A stretch of DNA of 64,000 nt from positions 80,371 through 144,370 of the forward strand of contig JAFCCU010000001.1 of assembly GCA_017610005.1 (NCBI GenBank), read 5' to 3'. The notes under the pieces were generated by a model, which saw only the letters and a program-made list of their open reading frames with translations, did not search any database and was not told the DNA's origin. The DNA is from Candidatus Woesearchaeota archaeon (lineage in GTDB: Archaea > Nanobdellota > Nanobdellia > Woesearchaeales > B29-G15). Below, one piece after another: positions 1,235 to 28,546 of this stretch. The position numbers were made by a program, and so were the translations under genes. Each line of letters begins with the position of its first letter. Positions within the stretch are counted from its first letter, which is position 1.

Positions 1235-1957
1235 CTATTTTGCTATTTCCCACATCAAATCAAAATACTTTTTATAAGATTCTGCTAATCTCTCATTGAA
1301 TATTTGGATTACTAATGGAGGTTTACTATAAAAGAACATTGCAACTTCTTTCCCACAGGCATGGGTAGAAATATTAGAATTAAATTTTTCAGGTAAAAAT
1401 TTTGCAGCTGTGAAAGGCATTTTATTTAAGAGTTTGATTCTAGTTGTTGCATTTTCGTTGTAAATATGATTCATAACTACCTTTCTTTTTATTCTTTCTT
1501 TGTGAAAGTGAGGAATTTCAAATTTTATAAAATCATCAACTGCTTTTTTTGGAACGCCCCAGACTCTAATTTCATCATTATAATCTAAAAACCCATAAAG
1601 AACAGACATTAATGCTCTAACTCCTTCTCTAACAACCGCCTCTCCACGTTTTTCCCTACATTCAGAAAGTAAATTTAATTGAGGTAAATGTTTTTTGATT
1701 AATTGTTCTTTTTCTTGAATAAACCTTAATAGATTATTTGGTGAAGCTGCTTCAAAATATTTAGTTTCATATCTTGTAGTGTATGCAACAAGCCCTTTTT
1801 TTACAAGCCTTTCTAGAACTTCATAAACATTACTCCGATTAACTTTACTTTTTTTTGCAACCTCTCCTGCTGTTGCTAAACCTATTTCAAGCAAGGTTAA
1901 GTAAACTTTGCCTTCATTAGGTGAAAAACCAATTTCTTCGAAGAATCCTGGATCCAT
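1235..1957 (-). CDS. TrmB-family transcriptional regulator (N-terminal wHTH plus C-terminal effector-like domain)
   Basis: N-terminus EIGFSPNEGKVYLTLLEIGLATAGEVAKKSKVNRSNVYEVLERLVKKGLV matches the TrmB wHTH pattern. 240 aa. Divergent from the tagged-gene array. Confidence 0.65.
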   Translation of the reverse strand: MDPGFFEEIGFSPNEGKVYLTLLEIGLATAGEVAKKSKVNRSNVYEVLERLVKKGLVAYTTRYETKYFEAASPNNLLRFIQEKEQLIKKHLPQLNLLSECREKRGEAVVREGVRALMSVLYGFLDYNDEIRVWGVPKKAVDDFIKFEIPHFHKERIKRKVVMNHIYNENATTRIKLLNKMPFTAAKFLPEKFNSNISTHACGKEVAMFFYSKPPLVIQIFNERLAESYKKYFDLMWEIAK

Positions 1958-2047
1958 GGTAATTATATATGCAGCTGATTTATTAACTTTTCTTTAAATT
2001 TCAACGAAAAGTTTATTTATATCCTTCCTAATAATAATTTTAAGGAG

Positions 2048-2269
2048 GTGAAGCACTTGAAAAAACAAGTTTACGAAAAACTTGCTGCTCTAATAACTGC
2101 AGCATTTGGGCTTGTAGCTGCATTGGCTTGGAATGATACAATTAAGGCAATATTCAAGGCAGTATTTGGTAATTCTGATGGTATCTGGCCCATGTTAATT
2201 TATGCAGTTATTGTAACAATTATTGCGATATTTGTAACAATTTGGATTAGCAAGCTGGCTGACAAATAA
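2048..2269 (+). CDS. Small two-TM membrane protein (hypothetical). A TTG at 2057, nine nt after an AAGGAGGTG Shine-Dalgarno, is a likelier start.
   Basis: Two hydrophobic helices (LAALITAAFGLVAALAW and MLIYAVIVTIIAIFVTIWI). Strong SD sequence upstream. Confidence 0.5.
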   Translation: MKHLKKQVYEKLAALITAAFGLVAALAWNDTIKAIFKAVFGNSDGIWPMLIYAVIVTIIAIFVTIWISKLADK

Positions 2270-2271
2270 TT

Positions 2272-2292
2272 TTTTTCTTTTTGTTTCTCCGA
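2272..2292 (+). terminator. Oligo-T tract after the small membrane protein gene (archaeal-type terminator candidate)
   Basis: TAATTTTTTTCTTTTTGTTTCTCC immediately 3' of the stop codon. Confidence 0.25.
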
Positions 2293-2430
2293 CGCCAAAT
2301 GTGCAAAACCTTTATAAGGCATTGCTGGTTAGTACTTTGTGGTGGTACGGGGATTGAAATTGGGGATATTAAATTATATTACTAAAAGTGAATTTAGTGA
2401 TTTCTTAAATAAAGATTACGGGGCAACAAG

Positions 2431-3678
2431 ATGAGCGATTCCGTAAGACCAAGACTGGATGATTTATTAAGAGAACCAGAAGATTATGGATGGAGATCTG
2501 GACCCCTTGAAGAGATTACTTGGACGTATACAAGGACGTCGCCAGGTGGGGAAACTAAACAATTTAAGAAAACTGAACCAGTTTATTATGTTAGAAAACA
2601 TGAAGTAATTCCAGCAGGCGAACACAAAATTGATTTTGATATTATAATTGAAGAGGGAGGATTTTTACAGGTACGTGCAGGTGCACATTTATATGAGGGA
2701 GAGATGAAATCAATTTGTGTTAGGGGAGGGACTCTACAAATCGAAGGTACTCCTAAAAATAAAGTGATTATTGCACCGATGACGGGTGTAAGAAACTTTT
2801 TAGGACTATCTTTTGAAGATAAATCCAGGGATTCTATCATTAGAAATTGTGATATTTTTGGAGAAACATTTGGGAATCAATTTGTGGAAGAAAATCCTTC
2901 TGATAGGGAGTTTAATATGGCCATGATAAGGCTTAAGGATCATTCCTACGTATCTTTAGATGGTGTCAACATTTTTGTAGGGGATTTGGTTGCTGGAGCA
3001 GTTAAACTCAACGAGTCGGGGATGTCTCTTAGAAATTCACAACTTACTTCCACTTCAAGAAAAGAAAGAAAACCTTATGGAATTTTAGGAGAAGATTCAT
3101 CTGCAGAAATTTACAAAACTGGGTTTAAGGGATTTAGAGAAAGTCCAATTTCTGGAAAAATGAATTTAGTACTTGTTGGAAGCGTAGTAGAAGATTATGA
3201 AGGCCAAAGAAGTTTTATTCATATACAGAAATACAATGTTAAGGCAGAAGATAATACATTTAAGGATTGTATCGTTGATGGAAATTCTAGGCCTGGGGGG
3301 ATAACATTAGATCAAGTTCCTTTTTTTACCTTCCAGTGGAATAAGTACATAAATTGTCGTGCTAATCGGGGAGGAGGAGTAAGAACAAGATTCTCAAAAG
3401 GGACATTTAAAGATGAAGAATTTAGAAAATGTAAGGCTCAAAATGGTGGAGCAGTTCATGTATTAGAGGGGCATGTTAGATTTGAAGATTGTGAATTTCT
3501 TGAAGGATATGCCTCTGAAAGAGGGGGCGCATTATGGTTGCAGGCTGATTCAGAAGGACCCTTGCATGAGGTTGTGAATTGTACAGCTAAAGGGAATACA
3601 GGCAAACTTGCAGGTAGAAATTATTTCCACCATCCTGAGCGCAAACAAGCTACAATCATAGGAGGGATACAAGAATAA
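2431..3678 (+). CDS. Tagged family member 1: N-terminal MSDSVRPRLDDLLREP tag plus right-handed parallel beta-helix protein
   Basis: N-tag, then a WRS motif, IPAGEH-x-IDFDII, AGAHL, and repeated GGxV/GGAL beta-helix-like turns (GGGVRTRF, NGGAVHVLEG, RGGALWLQ). No signal peptide or TM segment. Confidence 0.7.
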   Translation: MSDSVRPRLDDLLREPEDYGWRSGPLEEITWTYTRTSPGGETKQFKKTEPVYYVRKHEVIPAGEHKIDFDIIIEEGGFLQVRAGAHLYEGEMKSICVRGGTLQIEGTPKNKVIIAPMTGVRNFLGLSFEDKSRDSIIRNCDIFGETFGNQFVEENPSDREFNMAMIRLKDHSYVSLDGVNIFVGDLVAGAVKLNESGMSLRNSQLTSTSRKERKPYGILGEDSSAEIYKTGFKGFRESPISGKMNLVLVGSVVEDYEGQRSFIHIQKYNVKAEDNTFKDCIVDGNSRPGGITLDQVPFFTFQWNKYINCRANRGGGVRTRFSKGTFKDEEFRKCKAQNGGAVHVLEGHVRFEDCEFLEGYASERGGALWLQADSEGPLHEVVNCTAKGNTGKLAGRNYFHHPERKQATIIGGIQE

Positions 3679-4664
3679 TGTCAAGTGATGATAGTATCAG
3701 GGGAAGGGTTGAAGATTTATTAAAAATTCCTGGTGAGGGGGTTTCTTCTGAAATGAGCCTCATTTTTGGAGATACCCCTCCCGAAGGGTTTTCAAGAGAA
3801 AATGGAGTAATCTCCTTACCTCATGGGAGTGCATTAGTTAAACCTATTGTTAAATCAAAAACAATTGAAGAGATTTTACTTGATGGTAAAAATTTGCCTA
3901 ATTCTGTAGATTTTGCAAAGAAAAGAAATATATTAAAATTATTACAAGCTGCAAGAGAACAAATTTGTTTAAACGTTCAGGCAAAATATCCTATTCTTGA
4001 ACTTCCAAAAGATAGTTTTGGAAATGATTTACAAGTCATTGATTCAAGTATTGGTCTCTTGCCTGCAATTTTAGAATTTCATCCAGTGAGCATTAAAAAG
4101 GTTTCTGGGAGAATTGAAGTGGTTGACCTTTATACACAAAAAAAGTATTCCTCAAGTCTAGGACATTCATATGAGAACGAAATATTAACCAAAAAAACTT
4201 GTTTTTCAGAAAGTATGGGATCATTGGCTATTGCAGGTGCAATGATGGACCAACTTTCTTTACTTTCAAACACAATAGAAGACAATGGGAGAATTGGATT
4301 TAGGCCAGGCGAAGGAATTGTTGTTTATTTTCCTTTTTGGAAATTCTTAGTAAAGCAAACACTTGACATAATGGGGGAGGATATTTTACAATTCAAGGTA
4401 ATGGGGAAGGGATCAATAGAAAGACATTTTTGGGAACATGAGGCAACTGTTAGTTTCTATCATGGAATTTCTTTTGATGGAATACTCGGGCATTATGAAG
4501 GTTATGATTTTGGATTATCTATGAGGGGTGTTGGTGTAAGTAATTTAATTAAATCTGATAAGGTAACTAATAAACAAATAAGAGCGCATCCCTCTCCTTT
4601 TTTCCCTCCAATCAAGGCCCCGGCGGAGTTAGTTTATTCCTTTACAGGGGGTAGAATAAATTGA
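3678..4664 (+). CDS. Tagged family member 2: N-tag (SIRGRVEDLLKIPGEG) plus unrelated 310-aa body
   Basis: Start overlaps the previous stop (TAATG). The tag is divergent but recognisable. Body has no beta-helix repeats and no TM segment. Confidence 0.55.
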   Translation: MSSDDSIRGRVEDLLKIPGEGVSSEMSLIFGDTPPEGFSRENGVISLPHGSALVKPIVKSKTIEEILLDGKNLPNSVDFAKKRNILKLLQAAREQICLNVQAKYPILELPKDSFGNDLQVIDSSIGLLPAILEFHPVSIKKVSGRIEVVDLYTQKKYSSSLGHSYENEILTKKTCFSESMGSLAIAGAMMDQLSLLSNTIEDNGRIGFRPGEGIVVYFPFWKFLVKQTLDIMGEDILQFKVMGKGSIERHFWEHEATVSFYHGISFDGILGHYEGYDFGLSMRGVGVSNLIKSDKVTNKQIRAHPSPFFPPIKAPAELVYSFTGGRIN

Positions 4665-5005
4665 CAGATTCAGGATCTATTAGACAGAGAATGGATGATC
4701 TTTTACGTATCCCAGAAGTATCTCAAATTGAACAAATTGCAAATACTCAACATGTTGCCCCATCCATTGTAAAACCTAATTGGCCCAACAGAGAATATTA
4801 TGCTATGTTAAATGATTATTGCAAACAGTTACAAACAGAGGCTGAAGAATCAAGAAAAGGGGAAGAGCAAGCACAAGCAATTGGTGCAATTGTTGTTAGC
4901 CTTTGGTATTACGGTGTAATTAAGCCAGCGGCTCCTTTTATTGCTTATGCTGCTAAAAGGATTTTTCATCCTACAAGAAAGGTTATAAAAAATGCCAGAA
5001 AATGA
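4661..5005 (+). CDS. Tagged family member 3: 114-aa protein, N-tag plus C-terminal TM helix (tail-anchored type)
   Basis: MTDSGSIRQRMDDLLRIPE tag. C-terminal hydrophobic AIGAIVVSLWYYGVIKPAAPFIAYAA followed by a basic tail. Start overlaps the previous gene by 4 nt. Confidence 0.5.
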   Translation: MTDSGSIRQRMDDLLRIPEVSQIEQIANTQHVAPSIVKPNWPNREYYAMLNDYCKQLQTEAEESRKGEEQAQAIGAIVVSLWYYGVIKPAAPFIAYAAKRIFHPTRKVIKNARK

Positions 5006-6224
5006 TTCAGTAAGGGATAAGTTGGATCACTTAGTTAGTAGTGCAAGTGATCTTTTATCTTCTCCAATTACAAAGGATATTACACTTCCAATTGATGAGT
5101 ATCATCTTGCAAATCCTATTAGGGTTGCACCTTCAGGATCATTAACAATTCTTGGAGGCACAGTAATTCACAGAGGCCTTAAATCTGGGATTATTGCAGA
5201 AGGCCCAATTTTTATAAAAGGAGAAGAGGAAAATGAAGTTCTCTTTCCCTCAAAAAATAATAAAACTGGGGCTCCTGGAATTTTAATTAGCGGAGAAGCT
5301 GCTAAAAGTTCAGAATTAAAACATTTAATCATAGGTGGGGGGAATGATCCAATTTTACATCGATATAGGATTAAAGGCTTAAATGGATTTATAGGAGATT
5401 CTGCGATTAATGTTGTTGATTCAAAAGCCAAATTGGAGGATGTGCAAATTGAAGACTGGAGAGGGGTTTCTTCCATCAGTTTTTTAAGATCAAAAGGAGA
5501 AATGACAAGAGTGCAAGTCCTGAGAGGAGGAGACATTTCAAATGCTCCAAAGTACAATGGTGCAGGGATTAGTATCCACCAATCTACTGTAAATATAGAA
5601 AATGGTTTAATTAGGTTGGTGGAAGGACAAGGGCTTATTGCAGTTGAAAGTGCAGTTTTTATAGAAAATATTGATGTTACAGAATGTCTAGGCGCAGGAA
5701 TTGTTTATTCAAGATCTTCTGGGGCAATTTTGGGTGGAAATTCCCGACAAAACGGAATAGGTATATTTGTCTATGAGGGGTTTGATTTTAATATTAAAAA
5801 TTTTGTTATCAAAAGAAACAAAAAATCTGGCGTAGTTCTTGTTTGCCCTCAAGAAGTCGTGTTGACTGAGTGTCCAATCAGATCAAATGGAAGAGCAAAA
5901 TATGGGGGAGGGGTTTATTTAGATTTAGGAAAAGAAGGCACAAGCAGAGCTGAAATTCTTGGATGTGAAATAATTGGAAACTCAGCAAAATGTGGTGGAG
6001 GAGTTGTAATAAAAGGAATTGGAAATGGTACTTATAGTTTTGAAGGGACAATCATTGATAGGAATACTGTAACAGAAAAAGTAGGAGGAGTGCTCTTTGA
6101 AGCAAGTAAGATTGGAAATTTAGAGGAATTATTTAATGGGACTATGGGCGAAGAGAACATCCCTACTAAGTTTGGAGTAGAAGTAGGAATTACTGGAGGA
6201 TTTGATTATGGGCCGTACAAATAA
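4992..6224 (+). CDS. Tagged family member 4: N-tag (DSVRDKLDHLVSS) plus parallel beta-helix protein
   Basis: Repeated GGGVYLD, CGGGVVIKG and VGGVLFEAS turns, Gly/Asn/Ile-rich. Overlaps member 3 by 14 nt. Confidence 0.65.
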   Translation: MPENDSVRDKLDHLVSSASDLLSSPITKDITLPIDEYHLANPIRVAPSGSLTILGGTVIHRGLKSGIIAEGPIFIKGEEENEVLFPSKNNKTGAPGILISGEAAKSSELKHLIIGGGNDPILHRYRIKGLNGFIGDSAINVVDSKAKLEDVQIEDWRGVSSISFLRSKGEMTRVQVLRGGDISNAPKYNGAGISIHQSTVNIENGLIRLVEGQGLIAVESAVFIENIDVTECLGAGIVYSRSSGAILGGNSRQNGIGIFVYEGFDFNIKNFVIKRNKKSGVVLVCPQEVVLTECPIRSNGRAKYGGGVYLDLGKEGTSRAEILGCEIIGNSAKCGGGVVIKGIGNGTYSFEGTIIDRNTVTEKVGGVLFEASKIGNLEELFNGTMGEENIPTKFGVEVGITGGFDYGPYK

Positions 6225-9087
6225 AGATTCAGTAAGAAAGGATTTAGATGATTTAGTTAGTCTCCCTCCTATTGCTCAACCTTCTAAAGATAATATAGCT
6301 AGTAGTCCTCATGTTACTCCACCATATCAAAAGAAAAATTTTTTTAAAAGATATCCAAAAATTTCTACAGCATTGGCAGTTGGGACAGTGGGATTATTGC
6401 TCTGGGGAACTTTTGGCATTATGAAAAGGTTAAGCCAAACTAATTTAATAAACCTCCCAGCAGAAACTTATGAGGTTGACCCATATGTAAGAACAGAAAA
6501 TGAATTACAGGACCTTACAACTCAAGTTCATAATTTTAAAACAGGAATTTTATCAGGAACAGTAACAGAGGCAAGTTATAATTCTCTTCTCAGCCAAATC
6601 AATTTCAAACCAGAATACCAAGAATTAACAAAGGGACTTGAAACTGCGTGGTTTGATGGAGTAACTCTACCTGGTTATCTTGCTGACCTACAAACTGCAA
6701 GAGACCATTTAGAAGCTGATGATATTAACGCTACAAATTTGGCTATTGATTCGCTTGAACAAAGATTGCAAGAAGATATTGGAGAACATCCAAATTTATT
6801 AACAATCCAATCTGAAATAACACAATTAAGAGAATTAACTATTCCATATTCTATTCTTGAAAATAGATTTGAAGCCCTAGATGAAATGGTTGATGATGAC
6901 AACCTCAAAAGTGCATTAGTTTTCTCATCAACATTACTTACAGATATTCAATTATTTATTAATCAAAAGGACTACCTCCCTGCTAAAGTTTTATTGCAAG
7001 AAGCACAATCTTACCAGTTAAATTCAATTGAGATTCCCATTGGGGAAGGGGGCCTAATTGCCTTAAAAAATCAAGCTGAAGGGGGGCGTTACGAAGATGT
7101 GCTTGAACAATTTGAATCCTTATATCAATTTTTATCAATGAGCGAATCCCCTGAGCTTGTTGCTCTTGCCCTAGAAACAGGTTCATTCTTTTTTGAGGGT
7201 TATCTTGTCCCCATGAATCGAGCAATAGTGGGATCAATATATCAAGACTTATTTCCAGCTAACAACTTTGATAGGGCAAGGGAAATGACTGATTCTATGG
7301 TGGAAGAAGTAAGGGCATTTAGACAAGAATATAATTTTGGAATATTAAACACTTTTGCTCAAGAACTGGACCAATTAGTTGATTCAATCAATTCCGCTGA
7401 AGAAGAATACTTGAGGGTCGAAGCATTAGGTGATGTTGTTCAAACTGTGGAAATGGTTTATGCATTATCTAATGCAGGGAATTATGATTTGGCTTATGAA
7501 CGATTTCAAGAGGCAGAAACAGAGTTACTTAAAATTAATACAATAGATGCAATCACCCTTAGAAAAAATATGAGAACTTTTGCAGAGGCAAATTTTTTAA
7601 GAGACGTTTTAACAAGGGCGCAGGGATCAATTGGTGAATTATTTGCTGAAGGGGAAGTCATTAATGCCTTGCAAGCAAATTATAATTTGGAGAAAGAATT
7701 GGGCAAAATAGAAGATGGCTCAGAGATAAGAAGTTTTAGGGATCAAATGGTGGAAGCAAGTGGTGCCCAAAGGGCTTCAATTATTAGCGCTTATTCAAGG
7801 AAAATATGGGCAGACACTGGAAATCATGATATTTCTCTTTCCATTAGACAAAGAAGTATGTGGACGAATGTGGACGGAGTTCCAAAAGCAGTATCTTTAT
7901 TCTTGCCCGGCATGGTTGCAGTTTCTCCTGGTGAGTCTCATGTTATTTTAGGTAATCTTCTATCTGAATCCTATTTATCAGATCCAAATAGATCTGGATA
8001 TATCTTTAACCCTTATATGTTTAAAAATTTTGTAATCGCTGATGCTGATGGGTCTCTTAGGAATAATGAGATAAATATTATTGCGTCTCTTTTTAGCAAT
8101 TTGGTTAAAAGAAGTATTGGTAGAGATGTTGTAACTTATTACAATTGGCAAGAAGGAGCCTTATTTGGTGACTTGGATATTCCTGAGATTTCCTGGGAAA
8201 GTGAAAATTCGTTTTGGATGGCAGCAGGACTTAATAGATATTTAATTACATTTAATCCTGAAAATAATTCTATTGTTGACATTGTGGAAGAACATTACGG
8301 TCGTGACTGGAATTATTTTGATTTGGGGGATAAAGATCACATTGAAGAGATTTTAACAGTTAACCCAGATAATTGGGATATTGATTTAGAAGATATTGAT
8401 GGTTCTAAAGAGATGATCGATCTGGGAAGGCAGTTTGGTGCTTCTTTGGCTATATTAAAATTTTATGATGCTAAGAGATTGGCTGAGGCAATTGTGGCCT
8501 ATGATGGCCAACCCGGCCTTAGTACTGCGGAAATAAACACAATAGAACGGGCTTCTTATGAATTAGAAAAAATAATAATGCCTAATCTTAGGTTCCTTAG
8601 CGCATTTAACCAAGGCACCATTTACCCAAACATTGAACAGAGACAAGATGGTCTTTATTCAATAATTGGTTCCAGAGAAATTGAGCTTTTTGATGGAACT
8701 CCTTGCAGGTATGGGGTTTCCCCTGATGCCTCAAGAGTTGCAATTGTAAGAATGACAAATGAGGGGTGGTATTTTTCTGATTTTATTGTTGTTGATATTG
8801 ATGGGAGGGACCGTGTTGATAACTCCGCAATTCTAAATATGATAAACCAAGTTGAGGATAGCAGGGAAGGGGAAGCTTCGTGTGATGTTATTCAATTTGT
8901 ACCATTTGAGTGGGTCGATAATGATACGATTAGGGCAAATTATCCAAGAAGTGTGTCAGATGTGTGTTTAATAGATGTTAATAGAGATAATCAAATTGTT
9001 TACTTTATAGACCCAGTTTATACAAATAAGGAGTGGACTGAAAGAGAGATAAGAGACGAAATGGGGGCCAATTACCCTGGGAATTAA
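6202..9087 (+). CDS. Tagged family member 5: 961-aa type-II membrane protein. Cytoplasmic N-tag, signal-anchor TM, large helical/mixed ectodomain.
   Basis: NKDSVRKDLDDLVSLPP tag. KKNFFKRYPK followed by hydrophobic ISTALAVGTVGLLLWGTFGIM, giving N-in topology. C-terminus ...EMGANYPGN. Confidence 0.7.
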   Translation: MIMGRTNKDSVRKDLDDLVSLPPIAQPSKDNIASSPHVTPPYQKKNFFKRYPKISTALAVGTVGLLLWGTFGIMKRLSQTNLINLPAETYEVDPYVRTENELQDLTTQVHNFKTGILSGTVTEASYNSLLSQINFKPEYQELTKGLETAWFDGVTLPGYLADLQTARDHLEADDINATNLAIDSLEQRLQEDIGEHPNLLTIQSEITQLRELTIPYSILENRFEALDEMVDDDNLKSALVFSSTLLTDIQLFINQKDYLPAKVLLQEAQSYQLNSIEIPIGEGGLIALKNQAEGGRYEDVLEQFESLYQFLSMSESPELVALALETGSFFFEGYLVPMNRAIVGSIYQDLFPANNFDRAREMTDSMVEEVRAFRQEYNFGILNTFAQELDQLVDSINSAEEEYLRVEALGDVVQTVEMVYALSNAGNYDLAYERFQEAETELLKINTIDAITLRKNMRTFAEANFLRDVLTRAQGSIGELFAEGEVINALQANYNLEKELGKIEDGSEIRSFRDQMVEASGAQRASIISAYSRKIWADTGNHDISLSIRQRSMWTNVDGVPKAVSLFLPGMVAVSPGESHVILGNLLSESYLSDPNRSGYIFNPYMFKNFVIADADGSLRNNEINIIASLFSNLVKRSIGRDVVTYYNWQEGALFGDLDIPEISWESENSFWMAAGLNRYLITFNPENNSIVDIVEEHYGRDWNYFDLGDKDHIEEILTVNPDNWDIDLEDIDGSKEMIDLGRQFGASLAILKFYDAKRLAEAIVAYDGQPGLSTAEINTIERASYELEKIIMPNLRFLSAFNQGTIYPNIEQRQDGLYSIIGSREIELFDGTPCRYGVSPDASRVAIVRMTNEGWYFSDFIVVDIDGRDRVDNSAILNMINQVEDSREGEASCDVIQFVPFEWVDNDTIRANYPRSVSDVCLIDVNRDNQIVYFIDPVYTNKEWTEREIRDEMGANYPGN

Positions 9088-9120
9088 AATGAGAATTATG
9101 GGGCAAATGAGGAATAAGAA

Positions 9121-10194
9121 ATGAGTGATTCAGTAAGAAAACAACTGGATGATCTATTAAGAGAATCAGCTAAAGAAGGAGTTCTTAGAGGTGAGAGGCC
9201 TTTAGAAAGGGAAAGACTCTTAGATGGTTCAAAACCAGCTACGCAATATATATCTCCAGGAGGACCATATGGTAAAAAGGAAGTAGGCAGAAGAATTCTT
9301 CTCCCAGGAGATCACATCTTTAATCATATTATAAATGTTAACGGAAACCTTGAACTACAAGCAGGGGCACATTTAATCCCTGGTCCAGAAGGAGGGTTAA
9401 ATGTTGAAGGAAAGTTAATCTTCCTGGGTACAGAAGATAATCCTGTTATAGTTGAACCAGCAATGGGATATTGCCAGGGCATTGTCGTTAGGGAAGGAGT
9501 TGTGCATTTTGAACATGCCCAGATTATTGGAATGAGTAAGCTTGATATTGTTAAAGGGGTAACAAGAATACTTGGCAAAACAGGATTAAAAATGATTGGT
9601 TCGTATGGGTCATTAAAAGACACCGAGTTTACAGAAAGTGCGTATATTTCAATGGATGGAGAAGGTTCAACTGTTAGGTTGATGAGAGTAAACGCACATA
9701 ATAATGGTGGATTTGTTGGTTGTCCAATCTTACAATTCTTCCGAGGTAGTCTTTTTGCTGAAGAGCTTGGTATGTACAACAATAGGTCAGAATATTCAGG
9801 GTTATCAATTGCGATGATGAAAGCTGAAATTGTTAGAGCTCATCTGAGATCTCAAAGAACAACCGCGTTGCGTGTGTATTCTAGTCAATTATTAATGGAG
9901 GACTCTATTATAGCGGAAAATAGTGCCCGTTATGGGGCTGGTTTATCTATTGAAGAAAATTCATTGGTTGAATTGTTGGACACTATTGTAAGAAGTAATG
10001 ATGCAAAAGTGGCTGCTGCAGGAACATATTTGCAAGAGTCAATATTAAGATTAAAAGGAACAACTAGATATGAGAAAAACAGGGCCCCTATTGCAGAAGC
10101 AATAGGTTTTGTAGGAAAACCTCCAAAGTTGGAAGATTCAGTACATATAGATGGTGAAATCTTAGCTATAGAAAGAATAACTGGGAGGTCCTAA
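9121..10194 (+). CDS. Tagged family member 6: MSDSVRKQLDDLLRES tag plus beta-helix-like protein
   Basis: The 5' 45 nt are near-identical to member 8. LLPGDHIFNHIINVNGNLELQAGAHLIPGP is shared with members 1 and 7-9. Confidence 0.7.
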   Translation: MSDSVRKQLDDLLRESAKEGVLRGERPLERERLLDGSKPATQYISPGGPYGKKEVGRRILLPGDHIFNHIINVNGNLELQAGAHLIPGPEGGLNVEGKLIFLGTEDNPVIVEPAMGYCQGIVVREGVVHFEHAQIIGMSKLDIVKGVTRILGKTGLKMIGSYGSLKDTEFTESAYISMDGEGSTVRLMRVNAHNNGGFVGCPILQFFRGSLFAEELGMYNNRSEYSGLSIAMMKAEIVRAHLRSQRTTALRVYSSQLLMEDSIIAENSARYGAGLSIEENSLVELLDTIVRSNDAKVAAAGTYLQESILRLKGTTRYEKNRAPIAEAIGFVGKPPKLEDSVHIDGEILAIERITGRS

Positions 10195-10245
10195 GAAAAA
10201 TCAAGTTAAAGACATTTATCACAGGATGTTGACTAAAAGAATATT

Positions 10246-10335
10246 GTGAGAAGAAATGGGAACCAATTACCCTGGGAATTAAAATGAGAATTATCAAGCA
10301 AATGGGGAAAACGAAATGAGTGATTCAGTAAGGGA
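10246..10335 (+). repeat. Duplicated gene-junction fragment: a copy of 9052-9140 (3' end of member 5, intergenic spacer, 5' end of the next gene)
   Basis: gaaatgggaaccaattaccctgggaattaaaatgagaattat... versus gaaatgggggccaattaccctgggaattaaaatgagaattat... A relic ...EEMGTNYPGN* reading frame is preceded by a stop. Confidence 0.8.
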
Positions 10336-11629
10336 GAAGTTGGATGACATTGTAAGGGCCCCAATTAGAAAAGGTTGGAGAAGTCATCCTTGTACTACTA
10401 GCTCGTGGGATGTTACAAAAGGTGGGAGAAAAGTTTATTCTTATAAGGCTGATACTTATACTGTAAGGGGAGAAGAGACAATTCCCGCAGGAGATCATTT
10501 TTTCGATTATAACATTAGTGTTCTAGAAGGCGCAGTATTAACAATTGATCCTGGCGCAAGGCTTTTTTTCGCATCTTTATGTGGGATACAAGTAGTTGAT
10601 GGGAAGCTTGTTAGTAGGGGTGAAAAGAATAATAAGGTCAAAATATATCGAATGAGGGGATCACTAAATGGTTCTGCAATAAAGTTTTTTGGAGAAAAAG
10701 AAACTTCTTTATTAAGACATACTGAGATTCATGGAGAAGAAATATCATTTGGGCCGGAAAATAACCTTGATCATATTTTGGAATATTCTCCTGAATTAAT
10801 CAAATTGAATGTTGCGCATGTAGACCTAGAAGAAACCACTCTATTTATGGGAGAGTATTGTAATGAAGCAATAAATTTAACCACAAGATCTGTTCTAAAA
10901 ATGAAAGGAGGAGGAATAGTAGGAGGCAAGACTCCACTTGGAGCTACAGTAAGAGGAATATCTGGTATTGGGTCAAGGTTACTAATTGATGGGGCGTCAT
11001 TTAAAGATATTAATGGAGATGTATTTGCAAATCTAATTGATTGTTCAACTACAGTAAGATCAAGCACATTTGAAAATTTAAGAGGAAATCTTTGGGGAGG
11101 AGTATTTCATGTAGGAAAGGGCACACTCACAGTTACTGATTCAACATTTGTTAAGGATGGATCTAATAGTATGGGGGGAGTTTATTATTTAGCTGGAGGA
11201 ACAATAAGATCAAGAGGGAATACTTATGAGGAGTGTTTTTCTAAACAAGGGGGAGTAATTTATGTTTTAAATGGGTCTGCATACTTTGGAGAGGACGATT
11301 TTCTTTCAAGTCGGGGAGAAAATGGAGGGGTTGTTTATGTATCGTATACTTCAAAAGAGCTTGATGGGGGAAGAGTAGAATTAATTTCTTGCAATGGAAA
11401 TAATAATCATGCAAAAATGGGAGCCATAGGGTATTTAGAAGGTGGCGGATTAATTGTTAAACAGGGGAAATATAGATGGAACTTAGCTAGTGAAGCAGGA
11501 AATTTAGCTTATTGGAGAGACCCAGCCTTTGTTGCTTTTGAAGATGTTAATTATTTGACTATCTCCCCAAATAATTTTGCCCACAGAAGAGGTTTTATTG
11601 GACCCATAGAAAAGAGGAGGAAAATTTGA
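10316..11629 (+). CDS. Tagged family member 7: MSDSVREKLDDIVRAP plus WRSH motif plus parallel beta-helix
   Basis: TIPAGDHFFDYNISVLEGAVLTIDPGARLFF; GGVFHV, GGVYYLAGG, GGVIYVLNG, GGVVYVSY repeats. C-terminus NNFAHRRGFIGPIEKRRKI. Confidence 0.75.
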   Translation: MSDSVREKLDDIVRAPIRKGWRSHPCTTSSWDVTKGGRKVYSYKADTYTVRGEETIPAGDHFFDYNISVLEGAVLTIDPGARLFFASLCGIQVVDGKLVSRGEKNNKVKIYRMRGSLNGSAIKFFGEKETSLLRHTEIHGEEISFGPENNLDHILEYSPELIKLNVAHVDLEETTLFMGEYCNEAINLTTRSVLKMKGGGIVGGKTPLGATVRGISGIGSRLLIDGASFKDINGDVFANLIDCSTTVRSSTFENLRGNLWGGVFHVGKGTLTVTDSTFVKDGSNSMGGVYYLAGGTIRSRGNTYEECFSKQGGVIYVLNGSAYFGEDDFLSSRGENGGVVYVSYTSKELDGGRVELISCNGNNNHAKMGAIGYLEGGGLIVKQGKYRWNLASEAGNLAYWRDPAFVAFEDVNYLTISPNNFAHRRGFIGPIEKRRKI

Positions 11630-11651
11630 CAATGAAAAGGAGGCATAACCA

Positions 11652-12977
11652 ATGAGTGATTCAGTAAGAAAACAACTGGATGATTTATTAAGAGAACCAG
11701 TTGGAAAAGATTGGAGAAGTCATGATAGCGCATTAAACACTTGGTCTCTTAAAAAAGGAGAAGAAGAATTTTTCTCGTGGCAAGCAAAAACCTACACAGT
11801 GAGAGGAAATGAAACAATTCCCGCAGGAGATCATTTTTTCGATTATAACATTAGTGTCCTAGAAGGCGCAGTATTAACAATTGATCCTGGAGCCAGAATT
11901 TTTTTCGCATCACTTTGTGGGATTGAAGTAAATAATGGAAAAATTGTTTCTAATGGAGAAGAAGATAATCCTGTTGAAATATACAGGATGCAAGGATCTA
12001 GACAAGGATCCTCAATCAAATTTTTTGGAAATCAGGAAACTTCTGTGTTGAGACATACTGAGATTCATGGTGAAGAGATTTCATTTGGCCCTGTAGATGA
12101 GCTTGAACATATAGTAGAGCATACTCCCCCTTTAGTTAAACTTAATGAGGCTCATGTGATATTTGAAGATTCAACTATTTTTTTAGGACAGTATTGTAGC
12201 AAGGGAATTGACTTCAGACAAGATTCTCATTTGGCTATCAAGGGAGGAGGGATAGTAGGAGGGCCAGCCCCCATAGGAGTTAATTTGATTGGAATGGCTG
12301 GAAAAGATTCTAGGCTTCAAATTGAAAGGGCATTATTTAGAGATCTTAAAGGGCAAGGGTTAGCAAGTTTGACTAACTGCACTTCTGAAGTAAAATCTAG
12401 CACTTTTAGGGATATTATTGCAAATTCATTAGGGAGAGGGTTCACCATAGGGCCTGGAACTCTCACAGCTACAGGTAACACCTTTCTTAGAGTTAGTTCT
12501 GATGACTATGGAGGGGTTTTTTATGTTTCAGATGGCAAATTAAAATCAAGAGGAAATAGGTATGAACAATGTTCTTCTAAAGAAGGGGGAGTGGTTTATG
12601 TTTCTAAAAATGGACATGCTTTCTTTGAAGAAGATGATTTTATTAAAAATCAAAGTGAATCTGGAGGCGTAGTTTACATTGGCTTTACTCCAAAAGAAAA
12701 ATTTGATGAGAGGGGCCATGCAAGATTAATTTCATGTACTGGAAGAGGCAATAATGCAACAAATGGAGGAATTGCATACTTGTTAAGTGGAGGATTAATT
12801 GTTGAAGGAGGAAAATACCGAGAAAATAAATCTAAGGAATCTGGAAATTTAGTGTTTTGGCAAGGGGATTGGACCCCTGTTTCGTTTAAAGATGTAAACT
12901 ATTTGGCAATTTCCTCAAATAATTTTGCACATAGAAAAGATTTTTTTGGAGCAATAGAAAAGAAGAGGAAAATTTGA
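11652..12977 (+). CDS. Tagged family member 8: tandem paralog of member 7
   Basis: About 80% identical to member 7 over the first ~150 aa and at the C-terminus (NNFAHRKDFFGAIEKKRKI), divergent in the middle. Same GGVxYV repeats. Confidence 0.75.
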   Translation: MSDSVRKQLDDLLREPVGKDWRSHDSALNTWSLKKGEEEFFSWQAKTYTVRGNETIPAGDHFFDYNISVLEGAVLTIDPGARIFFASLCGIEVNNGKIVSNGEEDNPVEIYRMQGSRQGSSIKFFGNQETSVLRHTEIHGEEISFGPVDELEHIVEHTPPLVKLNEAHVIFEDSTIFLGQYCSKGIDFRQDSHLAIKGGGIVGGPAPIGVNLIGMAGKDSRLQIERALFRDLKGQGLASLTNCTSEVKSSTFRDIIANSLGRGFTIGPGTLTATGNTFLRVSSDDYGGVFYVSDGKLKSRGNRYEQCSSKEGGVVYVSKNGHAFFEEDDFIKNQSESGGVVYIGFTPKEKFDERGHARLISCTGRGNNATNGGIAYLLSGGLIVEGGKYRENKSKESGNLVFWQGDWTPVSFKDVNYLAISSNNFAHRKDFFGAIEKKRKI

Positions 12978-12999
12978 CAATGAAAATGAGGAATAACCG

Positions 13000-14223
13000 A
13001 TGAGTAATTCAGTAAGAAAAACACTGGATGATCTATTAAGAGAACCAGTTAGAAATGATTGGAGGAGTCATGACCTAATCATACAAACATGGTCATTTAC
13101 TGAGCAGGTTTCAATAGATTCACAGATAGAACATACCCTTGATTTACCCACTTATGTTGTCACAGGTAATGAAACAATTCCTGCAGGAGATCATCCAATA
13201 GACTATAATATTGTAGTAGCAAGTTCAGGAAAATTAACAATTGAAGATGGAGCCAAGTTATTTTTTGATGATATGTTTAGTTTAACTTCAGATGGTGAAG
13301 TTCAAGTTTTAAGCTCTCCGGAAAGAAGAGTATTGTTTGCCCCGATGAAGGGTGTTAAGAACTTCAAGGGGGTTTGGTTAAATGGGCGCCAAAGAAAATA
13401 CCTCTTGCAGCATGTTGATTTTACTGATGATACTAGGTTTAGCCCATATACCGCAAAGAATGTTAGGAACTTTCAAATGCCTCAAAGGTTACTCCATATA
13501 GAAGATGCTGAAGTGGATTTAAGAGATGTGACATTTACGCTTGGAAGATTTTCGCAAGATGCATTAGCCATGTTTAATGCCACAGTAAATCTCTATGATC
13601 CTAAATTTTTCACAAAAGGTGAGGCATTAAAATGGATGACTAAAAATGGGGAAATGGAGGGACACGGGGGAATTTATGGACATGATTCAAAAGTTTTAGT
13701 AGAAAGAGGCTTATTTGATGGATGCGTTGGGCGAATTGGAGGAGCATTGAGGCTTGATGATTGTGATACTACCCTTAAAAATACTAAATTGATTAATAGT
13801 AGAAGTAGGCTTTGGGGTGGCGGTTTAAGTGCATCTGGGGGTTCATTAAATCTATTGGGATGCGAGTTATTGGATAATGAAGGAGCTATGATGGGAGGGG
13901 CGGTATCTGCTGAGAATTTAAGAATATTAGTAGAGGGAGGAGTTTATAGAAGAAATCATTCAGAGTTTGATGGAGGTGCATTTTGCCTTAGAAATGTAAA
14001 TGGAAAAATTGTAAAAGTAAGGGTTGAGAGAAATGGATCCTATCATGGTGCAGGGTATTTCTTAGATGATTGTAATCTTGTTTTTGAAGGGGGAGATATA
14101 GAATATAATGAAGGTCATTTTGGTGCAGGGATATATTGGGAGGGGAAAAAACCAAAAATTAGAGGAACAAAAGTTAGAAGTAATATTCCAAAAGAAGATC
14201 AGATTTATTGTGGGGATGTTTAA
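13000..14223 (+). CDS. Tagged family member 9: MSNSVRKTLDDLLREPVRNDWRSHD plus beta-helix-like protein
   Basis: Shares the tag, WRSHD and TGNETIPAGDHPIDYNIVV with members 7 and 8. GGALRLDD, WGGGLSASGG and GGAVSAENL turns. The 7/8 and 8/9 junctions are homologous at DNA level. Confidence 0.7.
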   Translation: MSNSVRKTLDDLLREPVRNDWRSHDLIIQTWSFTEQVSIDSQIEHTLDLPTYVVTGNETIPAGDHPIDYNIVVASSGKLTIEDGAKLFFDDMFSLTSDGEVQVLSSPERRVLFAPMKGVKNFKGVWLNGRQRKYLLQHVDFTDDTRFSPYTAKNVRNFQMPQRLLHIEDAEVDLRDVTFTLGRFSQDALAMFNATVNLYDPKFFTKGEALKWMTKNGEMEGHGGIYGHDSKVLVERGLFDGCVGRIGGALRLDDCDTTLKNTKLINSRSRLWGGGLSASGGSLNLLGCELLDNEGAMMGGAVSAENLRILVEGGVYRRNHSEFDGGAFCLRNVNGKIVKVRVERNGSYHGAGYFLDDCNLVFEGGDIEYNEGHFGAGIYWEGKKPKIRGTKVRSNIPKEDQIYCGDV

Positions 14224-14226
14224 AAA

Positions 14227-15591
14227 ATGATAGATGATCAAGTAAGAACAAAAATGGATGATTTATTGAGAATTCCAAAAAAACCATGGTGGAAATACCT
14301 AGGATTTTATGCAGGTATTCCTGCAGTTATTCTTGTTGCAGTTTCTGCCTGGTATTTTACAAGACCAGAAGAACCTGTTGTTCAAGATCCAGTTGTTATA
14401 ACTGCCCCTACTGAAGAAGCACCCCCTATAGATACATTGATTGGTCCAATTGCCACCCCTCAATTTAGCCCAATCGAATCTGGATATAGGGAGTTACTTT
14501 TATTATTTGAACAAGAGCATTATGATCTTATTAGGGAAAGCGGTCCGGAATTATTAGAATTGGCAAGAGATGAAGGCTCAGAGCTTTTAGGAAACATTGA
14601 AAAATTACTTTCAAATGCAAATTTAGAGTATTATCTTGTAGAAATTGAAAAGAGATCACAAAATCAATATACCTTACTTGGGATACAATCCCTTGATGTT
14701 ATTATTGGAGAAATCGATGAAAAAGCAGGCCTTCAGGATGCACTTTTAGAAGCTTACAGGGCAAAGTATGACCTAATTAAAGATTCATTATCTCAAGGTT
14801 ATATCGCTCTCACCAAGAGCCAGTTAGAGGGAATCTTGGAAGATGCTGCATATCTAAGGCAAAGGATTGGTGGGCCAGAGATTAGGTCTCTCCTAGGCGA
14901 AATACAGATAACTTATGACCATCAAATTTTACTTCCTGAACTTGAGGGAGAATTGTACGCCATTACTAAAAAATCTAATCCCGGTTACACAGATTTATCC
15001 TCTGCTCAAATTATCCTTGATTCACTAAAAGCAATTGATGACAATTCAACCTCTCGCTCATCAAGAGAGGCCATATCTGATGTTGAAGATTTTATTGAAA
15101 CATTTTCTCCAACTGTAGAAGTTAGAAATCTTTATTTAACACTGGCCTCCCAAGTATCAAACAGCAATTTTAGTGAAGCAGAAACCACTTATCAACAACT
15201 CTTAACAATCGCCAATTTAAATCCTTCAAGATCTATGGGGAATCTCATGGAAGGAATAGATTCTTATTATATTGAGAATTTAAAAATTCCAGAATTTAAA
15301 AGAAGACTTGAAGAATTATCCACTTCTGGACAAATGTTTTTAGATTCATTATTTTTAAATTGGGTTGGATCTAATGTGACTCCTGTTGCAGGGCCAGGAC
15401 TTAGAATATTATTTGTTGAAATAGATGAATTAAATGAGAAATATTCAGATCCAAGACTTCAAGATTTAAGTAAACAAACTCTTGATCAGATAGGTAGAGA
15501 TCAAATATCATTGATTGGATCGGTAGGAGTAATGTTGGGGTATGCTGTTTTAGGGGTCATGGTGGTAGGAAGTATTGTTAATGATTATTAG
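14227..15591 (+). CDS. Tagged family member 10: N-tag (QVRTKMDDLLRIPKKPWWKY) plus signal-anchor TM, large helical ectodomain and C-terminal TM
   Basis: Tag followed by KK, then GFYAGIPAVILVAVSAWYF (N-in TM). C-terminal IGSVGVMLGYAVLGVMVVGSIV hydrophobic segment. Confidence 0.65.
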   Translation: MIDDQVRTKMDDLLRIPKKPWWKYLGFYAGIPAVILVAVSAWYFTRPEEPVVQDPVVITAPTEEAPPIDTLIGPIATPQFSPIESGYRELLLLFEQEHYDLIRESGPELLELARDEGSELLGNIEKLLSNANLEYYLVEIEKRSQNQYTLLGIQSLDVIIGEIDEKAGLQDALLEAYRAKYDLIKDSLSQGYIALTKSQLEGILEDAAYLRQRIGGPEIRSLLGEIQITYDHQILLPELEGELYAITKKSNPGYTDLSSAQIILDSLKAIDDNSTSRSSREAISDVEDFIETFSPTVEVRNLYLTLASQVSNSNFSEAETTYQQLLTIANLNPSRSMGNLMEGIDSYYIENLKIPEFKRRLEELSTSGQMFLDSLFLNWVGSNVTPVAGPGLRILFVEIDELNEKYSDPRLQDLSKQTLDQIGRDQISLIGSVGVMLGYAVLGVMVVGSIVNDY

Positions 15592-15849: not shown

Positions 15850-16580
15850 TCACTCAGGCACAACCACTTGCTCCCAAAGCACCTTAAAAAATTCTTTATA
15901 TGTTTGTGCAGCAATTTCACTTTTTATTTGAATAATGAGCGCTGTTTTGTGCCAGAAAGTTAAGATTATTTCATCTCCACAAATTGAAGTAGTCATATTT
16001 GGAGAAAATTTTCCTGGAATATATCCTGCGCTAGTATAATCCATTTTGTTTAGCATTTTAATTCTAGCAGTATTATCCTTAGTGTAAATATGAAGCATCT
16101 TTACTTTGGCTTCAATTCTCTTTTTATGCCATTTTGGAATTTCATACTTTAAAAATGCTGGATTATTTGCAGGAGGACCACCAAAAACATAAATTGGATC
16201 TTTTTTCTTAAGCCACCCAGAATTAATATTCATAAATGCTCTTGTCCCTTCGTAAACATGAGTATGCCCTTGTTTTTCAGCCATCCCAGATAAAACCTCC
16301 ATTTCAGGAAGTATTCTAGCTATTTTTCCTCTTTCTCTTTAACATACCTTAAGATATCTTTAGGGGGCGCCGCTTCATAATACTTTGTTTGATCTCTTTC
16401 AATATAATTTACAAGTCCTTTTTCAACAAGTCTTTGTAGTGAGTCGTAAGTATTAGTTCTATGAACATGACTTTTTTTTGCAATTTCTCCTGCAGTTGAA
16501 ATTCCTGCCTCAAGTAATGCCAGATAAAGTTTGCTTTCATTTGCAGAAAGACCAATTTCAGTAAGGATTGTTTCATCCAT
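15850..16580 (-). pseudogene. TrmB-family regulator paralog disrupted by a frameshift (two ORFs, 16320-16580 and 15850-16302, in different frames)
   Basis: The N-terminal wHTH ORF aligns with the intact TrmB at 1235-1957 and continues in another frame (…KEKEEK / IARILPEMEVLSG…). The shift is one missing A in an A-run near 16310. Confidence 0.55.
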
Positions 16581-18049: not shown

Positions 18050-18577
18050 TTGGCAATTAAAAATCCATTTAAAAGTTCTGTTACAAAAGAAGACTTTGAT
18101 AAGATTAAAGTCGCCTTTAATAAGATTAAAGATCAGATGGATGAGCATTTAGAAGGAATTAATGAAAATACTAATGAAATCCAATCAAATTACGAATATT
18201 TCCACCATTTAGAATCAAAGCTTGACAAATTAACTGAAAAAATTGAAACATTAATGTTAAGATTTAATGAACTTGACCCAGGAGACAAAGCAGAAGGTAA
18301 AATTGAATTATCTTACGATGAAAAGAAAGTCTTCTTAGCAATATACAAATATTCAACCACTGAAAAGTTCATCACATATAGTGACATTTCAAAAAAACTA
18401 AATTTGCCTTTATCATTAGTGAGATTTTATGTAACAAACCTAATTGAGAAAGGAGTCCCCATTGTTAAAAAATACCAGCATAGAGAAATTCTAGTTTCAT
18501 TAGACCCTGCATTTAGAGAAGCTCAGACAAAAGAGAACCTTGTAAATATTAACGAGTCAATTACCAGATATATTTAG
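18050..18577 (+). CDS. Hypothetical protein with an N-terminal coiled coil and a C-terminal winged-helix-like DNA-binding segment
   Basis: KKVFLAIYKYSTTEKFITYSDISKKLNLPLSLVRFYVTNLIEKGVPIV resembles a MarR/TrmB-type wHTH. Confidence 0.4.
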   Translation: MAIKNPFKSSVTKEDFDKIKVAFNKIKDQMDEHLEGINENTNEIQSNYEYFHHLESKLDKLTEKIETLMLRFNELDPGDKAEGKIELSYDEKKVFLAIYKYSTTEKFITYSDISKKLNLPLSLVRFYVTNLIEKGVPIVKKYQHREILVSLDPAFREAQTKENLVNINESITRYI

Positions 18578-18614: not shown

Positions 18615-19202
18615 ATGGATGAAATAGCTTTTAAGGGAGGTTTAATTGCCCTAGTTGCAGAACAAGTAGGGCTAGCACCAGTCTCTGCTCAAGAAAAAAA
18701 ACTTTCTGAATTATTCCCCTTACCAGAAGCTAAGGAATATTTAGATGGTTCCCTTGTTAACATGGCTGTTCATACATTGGAAGATGGAGAACCTCTAAAT
18801 GTGAGTAAGGCTTATAACCACATTTTTGAAATTACAAAAGGATTTTTAGAAACTGAATTTTATGAGAGGATCGGTAAAGAAGCAAGAGCCGGTTCAGAAT
18901 ATTATATGGGATATGTTATTGGAGGGGGGGAGGAGTCAGAACTTTATTTGGAATTTGGATTAAACGTTCTTCGTCAAAACCCTCTTATCTCATCTACTTT
19001 CTCAAATTTAGTAACCCTTGGATTTGATCCACAATTTGATGATGTTTCCCTTTCTGATTTTGTAAGAATAGTGCATGAAAGGTTTGAATTGCTGTGGGAT
19101 GTGGCTTCAGTTAGACTAAGAGATTTAGGTCTATTAGGAGTGGGTGGTTATTCAGTGAATCGATTAGAGAATGACGATACACCCCTGTATCTTTTTAAAT
19201 GA
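18615..19202 (+). CDS. Hypothetical protein
   Basis: Clean 195-aa ORF in the same orientation as its neighbours. No recognisable motif. Confidence 0.4.
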   Translation: MDEIAFKGGLIALVAEQVGLAPVSAQEKKLSELFPLPEAKEYLDGSLVNMAVHTLEDGEPLNVSKAYNHIFEITKGFLETEFYERIGKEARAGSEYYMGYVIGGGEESELYLEFGLNVLRQNPLISSTFSNLVTLGFDPQFDDVSLSDFVRIVHERFELLWDVASVRLRDLGLLGVGGYSVNRLENDDTPLYLFK

Positions 19203-20056: not shown

Positions 20057-20096
20057 AACAGTTCCATTTTTAAATTATTAGTTTTACCATTCTTTT

Positions 20097-28244: not shown

Positions 28245-28439
28245 ATTTTTAATTGAATCCTCACTTTTAAACTTTTTTATTGATTTTTTTAATTCTTGTG
28301 TATATTGAAAAGAATTACCTAGACTTATATTCTTTAAAATATATATTAAAATAGACTATAGTGTTCTAAAATATATAATATAAAACTATCTTTCTAGACA
28401 TTATTTTTAATAATATTGTTTTTTATAATATAATAAAAC

Positions 28440-28500
28440 CTTTAATAAATAATTAAAAATATTAGCCTTAATTATAATTAAAAGATTTAATTAAAAATTA
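28440..28500. repeat. Extremely AT-rich tract 3' of the integrase containing the palindrome TAATTAAAAGATTTAATTA
   Basis: Same palindrome class as the array at 29780-29995. Confidence 0.5.
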
Positions 28501-28546
28501 ATAATATTAACCATTCCTCAAAAACTAGTTTCTCGTCTAAAAACTA

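Follow-up and report, generated by a model that had tools for sequence, protein, structure and literature searches.

A short N-terminal peptide common to ten consecutive genes of a Woesearchaeota archaeon, tentatively read as a cytoplasmic docking or targeting helix

A 64,000-nucleotide (nt) stretch of the genome of a Candidatus Woesearchaeota archaeon (assembly GCA_017610005.1, contig JAFCCU010000001.1, positions 80,371 to 144,370; hereafter the window, numbered from its first letter) carries ten consecutive plus-strand genes, m1 to m10, whose products all begin with the same peptide of about 14 residues (hereafter the tag). The genes occupy 2431-15591 and are tightly spaced or overlapping, which is consistent with one operon. 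We tentatively infer, at somewhat less than even confidence, that the tag serves for docking or targeting, as a helix which is specific to this lineage, is read in the cytoplasm and marks every product of this operon.

Ten consecutive genes share an N-terminal tag

The tag consensus, M-x(1-6)-[DN]S[VI]R-x-x-[LM][DE]D-L-[LV]-[RKS]-x-P, is found at all ten N-termini. Used as a regular expression on the six-frame translation of the 64 kb, it gave 10 matches, 10 of 10 at the start of an open reading frame (ORF) and 0 elsewhere, and the degenerate DNA version gave 4 matches in the window against 0.00 expected. The tag is real and non-random. It reads DSVRKDLDDLVSLP in m5 and DQVRTKMDDLLRIP in m10, is divergent in m4 (DSVRDKLDHLVSSA), and has S in place of the final P in m6. 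The single invariant Arg is followed by K, Q, G, P, E, D or T and then by the acidic LDDLL. Purine-rich motifs resembling Shine-Dalgarno (SD) sequences lie 8-12 nt 5' of each start, and an in-frame stop is found 4-20 codons 5' of every tag (10/10), which excludes a hidden N-terminal signal peptide. In the case of m5, placed at 6202-9087 in the preliminary description, the tag and the layout behind it were borne out, but the start at TTG 6202 gives way to ATG 6208, two codons downstream (GGAGG at 6195-6199; public gene call of 959 amino acids [aa]). The cluster proteins are present in the NCBI and JGI collections, each on one single contig. The ten genes, all on the plus strand, are as follows (TM, transmembrane segment).

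m1, 2431..3678, +: 415 aa; tag at nt 2437-2478; right-handed beta-helix (Beta_helix E value 2.6e-5); no TM, no signal peptide
m2, 3678..4664, +: 328 aa; tag at nt 3690-3731; soluble domain, fold unassigned
m3, 4661..5005, +: 114 aa, TTG start; tag at nt 4673-4714; linker homologous to the m5 linker
m4, 4992..6224, +: 410 aa; divergent tag at nt 5004-5045; beta-helix
m5, 6208..9087, +: 959 aa; tag at nt 6226-6267; Pro-rich linker; basic flank; TM I52-M72 (nt 6361-6423); C-terminal part an acidic domain of ~885 aa, predicted outside
m6, 9121..10194, +: 357 aa; tag at nt 9127-9168; beta-helix paralog
m7, 10316..11629, +: 437 aa; tag at nt 10322-10363; beta-helix
m8, 11652..12977, +: 441 aa; tag at nt 11658-11699; beta-helix
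m9, 13000..14223, +: 407 aa; tag at nt 13006-13047; beta-helix
m10, 14227..15591, +: 454 aa; tag at nt 14236-14277; KKPWWK; hydrophobic segment Y24-F44 (nt 14296-14358); acidic all-alpha domain of ~380 aa; second TM I427-V451 (nt 15505-15579); terminal NDY

The tag is an amphipathic helix selected as a peptide

The conserved residues of the tag form a three-turn amphipathic helix, capped by Ser/Asp at its N-terminal end and terminated by Pro. It has a hydrophobic stripe (V5-L9-L12-L13) and, alongside D11, a ladder of i/i+4 charges (R6-D10-R14); the linker behind it is not conserved. The hydrophobic moment of the tags ranges from 0.43 to 0.78 (95th percentile of the background, 0.55), and their mean hydrophobicity is negative. 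An in-plane membrane anchor was ruled out by this negative mean and by the two conserved Asp.

Nei-Gojobori counts over the 13 tag codons were compared with those over the next 13 codons. The proportion of synonymous differences was 0.59-0.65 in the tag and 0.55-0.58, the level seen between unrelated sequences, in the codons behind it, whereas that of nonsynonymous differences was 0.28-0.34 in the tag and 0.67-0.69 behind it, a pattern that persisted once near-identical members were dropped. No consensus pairing was found by RNAalifold over the region of the SD motif and the tag. With synonymous sites saturated, the peptide conserved and no RNA structure, selection acts on the peptide. An RNA-level explanation of the tag was ruled out by the saturated synonymous sites and the lack of a consensus structure.

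The tag is carried by unrelated architectures

All-against-all BLASTP revealed that m1, m4, m6, m7, m8 and m9 form one paralogous family and that the tag is the sole part which m2, m3, m5 and m10 have in common with it; the tag is present on at least four unrelated architectures. Besides the tag, m3 and m5 share ~25 linker residues (BLASTP E value 1.5e-5 over 45 aa). The cargo domain of the six paralogs is, by Pfam match and predicted fold, a right-handed parallel beta-helix. In Pfam, m4 matched Beta_helix (PF13229) with 41.3 bits (cut-off 25.9) and NosD with 24.2, and the Beta_helix/NosD match of m1 was weak. The AlphaFold2 model of m8 (predicted local distance difference test [pLDDT], 81.7; predicted template modelling score, 0.84) has a helix at residues 3-13, a beta-hairpin and then a right-handed beta-helix, and a Foldseek search with it retrieved PL6 lyases, AlgG, the adhesin PfbA, NosD and phage tailspikes (E values of 1e-6 to 1e-3). 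The model of m10, made from the single sequence, also has a helix (residues 4-14) and was too poor for a fold search (pLDDT 50.8).

A full HMMER search with a profile of the beta-helix family matched 62,835 proteins. The best 148 foreign matches were mostly giant repeat proteins aligned in the repeat region only; 0 of these 148 had a tag-like N-terminus and 99 had a hydrophobic N-terminal signal or anchor. Together with the structural neighbours, which are secreted enzymes, adhesins and tailspikes, these relatives agree with the earlier statement that beta-helix proteins are usually found at the surface or outside the cell.

In the m8 model, the tag helix has a pLDDT of 52-61, compared with >85 in the beta-helix core, and it is set off from the first coil by a hairpin and a linker. 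An amphipathic helix caps the N-terminus of many right-handed beta-helix proteins, and six of the ten members are beta-helix proteins, so the tag could be a structural cap whose presence on the other members is a by-product of exon-like reuse of the 5' end. However, the low helix confidence in the m8 and m10 models would fit a free appendage better than a packed cap, the tag is equally conserved on m2, m3, m5 and m10, all without a beta-helix, and in m5 and m10 the helix is predicted to lie across the membrane from the large domain. We give a capping role hardly any credence.

The beta-helix paralogs, several in number, alike at the N-terminus and different in the body, also recall the tailspikes of multi-tailspike phages. 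The paralogs could be tailspike-like receptor-binding proteins of an integrated archaeal virus or a surface appendage, plugged by their common N-terminus into a shared baseplate or adaptor, and the m8 model does match phage tailspikes and pre-neck appendages (E values of 4e-6 to 1e-3). These matches are, however, to a generic beta-helix and equally good to lyases and adhesins. In such phages the anchor modules fold as domains that are tens to hundreds of residues long, whereas the tag is a short helix without viral context: a PHROG scan of nine members (m1-m6 and m8-m10) and of the untagged ORF at 98-1234 gave no match, none was found in phage genomes or IMG/VR, and no capsid, terminase or portal gene is present in the window. 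The cytoplasmic N-termini proposed for m5 and m10 do not fit such an adaptor either, and a viral or appendage origin seems very improbable.

The ORF at 98-1234 (plus strand) encodes a helical protein of 378 aa that matches DUF7260 (E value 1.3e-3) and faintly resembles m10 and m5 in their outside domains (BLASTP E value 0.2); the likeness among the three proteins lies in a helical region. The protein begins with ARGNTLEDLESVF, which could be what is left of a tag that has decayed and shifted by one residue.

Membrane topology of m5, m10 and m3

Hydropathy was calculated on the Kyte-Doolittle scale in 19-residue windows with a threshold of 1.5, which was exceeded only in m5 (aa 54-72, 1.67) and m10 (aa 24-42, 1.71; aa 433-451, 2.28). 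In m1, m2, m4 and m6-m9 the highest window was <=1.45, and none of these maxima was N-terminal. These values and the close upstream stops uphold the preliminary description in that the beta-helix members bear the tag without a TM or a signal peptide. In m5, the tag is followed by a 31-residue Pro/Ser-rich linker and QKKNFFKRYPK-ISTALAVGTVGLLLWGTFGIM-KR, and in m10 by KKPWWK-YLGFYAGIPAVILVAVSAWYF-TRPEEP; in both, an uncharged segment of 21 residues comes after the tag and is flanked by K/R on its N-terminal side. The flanks carry +5/0 (N) versus +2/-1 (C) charges in m5 and +5/-2 versus +1/-3 in m10, and the charge differences (C-N) of -4 and -5, respectively, predict an N-in orientation by the positive-inside and charge-difference rules. 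As a control within the same genome, K+R were counted on the two membrane sides of MscS (0 versus 10, matching its known N-out/C-in topology), TauE (4 versus 27) and EamA (18 versus 5), showing that the polytopic membrane proteins of this genome have a strong positive-inside bias. By these rules, the tag is probably on the cytoplasmic side as m5 and m10 insert, in line with what had been proposed. N-glycosylation sequons, taken as a proxy for an outside location, were no different in the cluster proteins and in housekeeping proteins.

The second TM of m10 (aa 427-451, nt 15505-15579) is stronger (2.28) and is followed only by NDY, with no basic tail. A canonical (-3,-1) site at which signal peptidase might cut, VSA41|W42, lies after the 14-15-residue core of the first segment. 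This segment can equally well be taken for a signal peptide whose n-region is extended, in a protein with a C-terminal anchor. Thus m10 may be either a two-TM hairpin around an outside domain of ~380 aa or, if cleaved at this site, a type I protein; such cleavage would leave the mature protein without the tag, whose stay in the cytoplasm would then be transient. The (-3,-1) sites of m5 are weaker and lie within the hydrophobic core, and KR directly follows the segment. In m3, a marginal hydrophobic stretch (AIGAIVVSLWYYGVIKPAAPFIAYAA, aa 73-98, nt 4877-4954) scores 1.39 and precedes a basic tail, KRIFHPTRKVIKNARK, with a charge of +7 (seven basic residues in sixteen).

Three classes of export signal were rejected for the tag. 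A Sec signal peptide or anchor needs, within the first ~60 residues, a basic n-region and then a hydrophobic h-region (at least 7-15 residues, or ~20 for an anchor), present in m5 and m10 only, the marginal stretch of m3 being C-terminal, and the mean hydrophobicity of the tag is negative. A Tat signal would require the twin-arginine S/T-R-R-x-F-L-K with an h-region behind it, and the tag has a single invariant Arg with the acidic LDDLL after it. The layout of class III (prepilin/archaellin) signals (short basic leader, G/A at -1, hydrophobic helix of ~20 residues from +1) was found in no member. The N-terminus of the ORF at 38744-39187, MMSLKRCKFLIFFLVIILISC, we take to be a lipobox-type signal, so the organism presumably does use classical signals.

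The tag could nevertheless be a removable leader, or the n-region of an extended signal peptide, that acts before or during translocation or processing, m10 (perhaps also m5) being cut by signal peptidase and the soluble members by a dedicated protease at R-x-P. Such a leader would be comparable to extensions of the ESPR or YSIRK type or to double-glycine leaders. The VSA41|W42 site and the C-terminal TM give m10 the usual build of archaeal type I surface proteins, the conserved Pro ends the helix (S in m6), and S-[VI]-R-K presumably recalls the SIRK of the YSIRK motif. Moreover, long, domain-structured signal sequences are found in beta-helical autotransporters (PMC2805444). Yet 7 of the 10 members are without any h-region, there is no GG/GA cleavage motif, ESPR is not found by Pfam, the m5 segment stands directly before KR with its (-3,-1) sites inside the core, and the window encodes no C39-peptidase ABC transporter or other candidate protease. 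We regard a leader of this kind as unlikely. The earlier preference for a docking or targeting peptide over a cleaved signal was not established: the tag is not of the Sec, Tat or pilin type, but cleavage stands as an alternative, given the site in m10.

Duplication and gene conversion in the array

The tag DNA of m1, m6, m8 and m9 (2431-2478, 9121-9168, 11652-11699 and 13000-13047) is 83-96% identical, whereas the bodies of these genes are ~27% identical in protein and their upstream DNA is unrelated. The closest paralogs overall, m7 and m8, have tag DNA that is yet only 73% identical. The region 10228-10374, in the m6-m7 spacer, is a 76% copy of 9033-9179, which holds the last ~55 nt of m5, the following spacer and the start of m6. 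This copy of the 3' end of m5 before m7 is the footprint of a segmental duplication that built the array, and m3 looks like a copied 5' module of m5.

The tag may then have no sorting role, and be a degron, an anti-degron or an expression element inherited by tandem duplication, reuse of 5' ends and gene conversion. This would be in keeping with near-identical tag DNA before divergent bodies, with the m5 remnant and the m5-like m3, and with the presence in the window of a gene for the membrane-bound protease LonB, whose active site is cytoplasmic. However, conversion alone is insufficient, since synonymous sites are saturated and the peptide is conserved; there is no RNA structure, and a complete amphipathic face, typical of a binding helix, is retained on four unrelated architectures. 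A mere stability or expression element appears improbable.

No true copy of the tag was found outside the cluster

The tag was searched for outside the window with a 37-bit degenerate DNA pattern, in collections that do not include the source contig itself. There were 5 matches in the GTDB representatives, 14 in the JGI metagenomes and 0 in IMG/VR, none of them a true copy of the tag: the 5 and 14 matches were dismissed as chance, being ORF-internal or out of frame, unrelated, and mostly in high-GC bacteria. A profile of the tag run against 5.8 billion proteins gave 8 word-sharing candidates, none with an E value <=10, in a search that has no power for a 14-residue motif, and divergent versions of such a motif are below the reach of these searches. 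With m8 and m5 as queries, the same 5.8 billion proteins yielded only paralogs from the same contig or the protein itself. Nothing was found for the tag, m2, m3, m5 or m10 in Pfam, NCBIfam, PHROGs, PDB sequences, phage genomes or plasmids, and no Pfam or NCBIfam match, including ESPR (PF13018), covered residues 1-30 of any member. A literature search on archaeal N-terminal tags of this kind returned nothing relevant. The whole m1-m10 cluster is an orphan.

Comparison with known targeting peptides

The kind of device is known, a short terminal targeting or docking helix, and the tag is an unrelated instance of it in an orphan archaeal operon. Each of the families compared here has a defining feature that the tag lacks, and it belongs to none of them. 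By analogy, the functionally closest appear to be the encapsulation peptides of bacterial microcompartments, which are short terminal amphipathic helices, joined by a variable linker to diverse operon-encoded cargo (PMC4594438, PMC12339742). The tag has the same build, a terminal amphipathic helix plus linker on functionally different proteins of one operon. Encapsulation peptides dock their hydrophobic face on a common cytoplasmic partner, a likeness that we propose for the tag. There is, however, no sequence relationship, and two or three of the tagged proteins are membrane proteins whose large outside domains bar them from being lumen cargo. To our knowledge, microcompartments have not been reported in archaea, and neither BMC-H/T (PF00936) nor BMC-P (PF03319) was found among the scanned ORFs of the window, a scan that covered ORFs of at least 120 aa beyond 22 kb.

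The layout of m5 and m10 seems closest, again by analogy, to the extended signal-peptide motifs of beta-helical surface proteins, as exemplified by the ESPR of type V secretion (PMC2805444). Like the ESPR, and like YSIRK-G/S, the tag of m5 and m10 would be a motif on the cytoplasmic side of a hydrophobic segment in a large surface protein. YSIRK-G/S is a conserved N-terminal motif of Gram-positive surface proteins, and we take S-[VI]-R-K of the tag to resemble its SIRK. Unlike in both families, 7 of the 10 carriers have no hydrophobic region and an acidic LDDLL core stands in place of the G/S part; unlike for the ESPR, the host is an archaeon without an outer membrane, and Pfam finds no ESPR.

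Two further families share part of the pattern. MIM1 of ESCRT-III is a C-terminal (D/E)xxLxxRLxxL(K/R) motif bound by the MIT domains of the ATPase Vps4/CdvC, and the tag resembles it in being a three-turn helix with Leu at i, i+4 and i+7 and with conserved Asp/Glu and Arg. However, the tag is N-terminal, its R/L register is off by one and its carriers are not ESCRT-III proteins; no MIT, Vps4 or ESCRT-III genes were found in the window. Double-glycine leaders are amphipathic N-terminal peptides of 15-18 residues without a hydrophobic core, read in the cytoplasm by C39-peptidase ABC exporters. The tag has hydrophobic residues at -4 and -7 from its boundary, as these leaders do, but the boundary is [RKS]-x-P instead of GG, GA or GS, and the cargo has 114-959 aa instead of being small peptides.

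Proposed role of the tag

If the tag is a docking helix, it would be kept on the cytoplasmic side of m5 and m10 when the adjacent hydrophobic segment inserts N-in, and it would be a free N-terminal appendage on the seven soluble members. Its hydrophobic stripe could dock in a groove of a common partner, or the helices could bundle together. Docking would bring m2, m3 and the beta-helix proteins together on the inner membrane face, beside the cytoplasmic tails of m5 and m10. Within this reading, the tag may be the assembly tag of a membrane-associated complex, which we hold possible but doubtful. It may also be a hand-over signal for non-Sec/non-Tat export or sorting of the signal-less beta-helix proteins, a version that is attractive because the relatives of the beta-helix domain mostly carry N-terminal secretion signals (99 of 148), and that we nevertheless consider rather unlikely. 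It is a long shot that the tag serves as the address by which a hitherto unknown archaeal route recognises folded, signal-less, adhesin-like beta-helix proteins and takes them to the surface; m5, m10 and m3 would then be tag-bearing membrane components of the route or co-sorted anchors.

Several points weigh against a docking helix. The tag is found in one genome only, so that comparative support is missing, and three turns are short for a stand-alone interaction module. No partner was found in the window, which offers only the housekeeping protease LonB, a ParA/MinD-like ATPase, an FKBP, PAC2 and MscS. The topology of m5 and m10 comes from simple charge rules rather than from a trained predictor or an experiment, and in m10, less clearly in m5, signal peptidase could cut the tag off. 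If the hydrophobic stretch of m3 is a TM, the same rule could place the tag of m3 outside, unless m3 is tail-anchored. Finally, patchy gene conversion, confined to the first ~48 nt, looks like the process that keeps some of the tags alike in DNA.

Genomic neighbourhood

The genes of this archaeal window code for a family B DNA polymerase, a LonB-type protease, arginyl-tRNA synthetase and a tRNA-intron endonuclease, as well as for PAC2, TrmB regulators, a NYN protein and Memo. Its GC content is ~34%, and no tRNA or Rfam elements were found in it. Further products are a ParA/MinD-like ATPase, an FKBP, two MscS channels, TauE and EamA. No secretion ATPase, C39-peptidase exporter, MIT/Vps4, shell protein or viral module is present in the window. 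The preliminary description had pointed to recognition by a cytoplasmic factor, for instance a chaperone or an ATPase, and this suggestion was not substantiated, as none of the ATPases, chaperones and channels encoded in the window can be linked with the tag. Two genes immediately upstream of the cluster are of interest.

DUF5654 protein, 2048..2269, +: likely start TTG 2057; 70-73 aa, 2 TM; E value 3.7e-26
TrmB-family regulator, 1235..1957, -: transcribed divergently from the cluster; candidate regulator only

The DUF5654 ORF, with GGAGG just upstream, lies between the divergent TrmB gene and m1 and is possibly the first gene of the operon; there is no evidence that links it to the tag. TrmB-family paralogs in the same orientation bracket the tagged cluster (1235-1957 and 15850-16580, both on the minus strand). 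The downstream copy is split into a helix-turn-helix ORF (16320-16580) and a C-terminal ORF (15850-16302), and judging from the sequence it is probably frameshifted or a pseudogene. The region 2001-14000 differs from the rest of the window in a strongly positive GC skew (+0.15 to +0.33) and a slightly raised GC content (0.36-0.37 versus 0.33-0.34).

Farther downstream, a coiled-coil plus winged-helix protein (18050-18577) precedes two adjacent plus-strand ORFs at 19199-21467 (285 and 456 aa), which are paralogous over their C-terminal ~160 residues (E value 2e-4). At 27717-31156, a gene for peptide deformylase, an enzyme unusual in archaea, adjoins a stretch of 26% GC with genes for a tyrosine recombinase (28547-29353) and for an AbiEii toxin-like product (30212-31156), and this region may be a mobile or foreign segment.

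Significance

Archaeal protein traffic is known to use Sec, Tat and pilin-type signals, with sorting by C-terminal archaeosortase signals. None of these matches a hydrophilic N-terminal tag that a single operon puts on membrane proteins and on soluble beta-helix proteins alike. The value of the observation is limited at present by the single genome, the lack of a partner and a topology based on rules. If the tag is a true docking or export address, it would add a new principle of targeting, in an archaeal lineage about which little is known, and the 14-residue peptide would be a handle with which to fish out the machinery.

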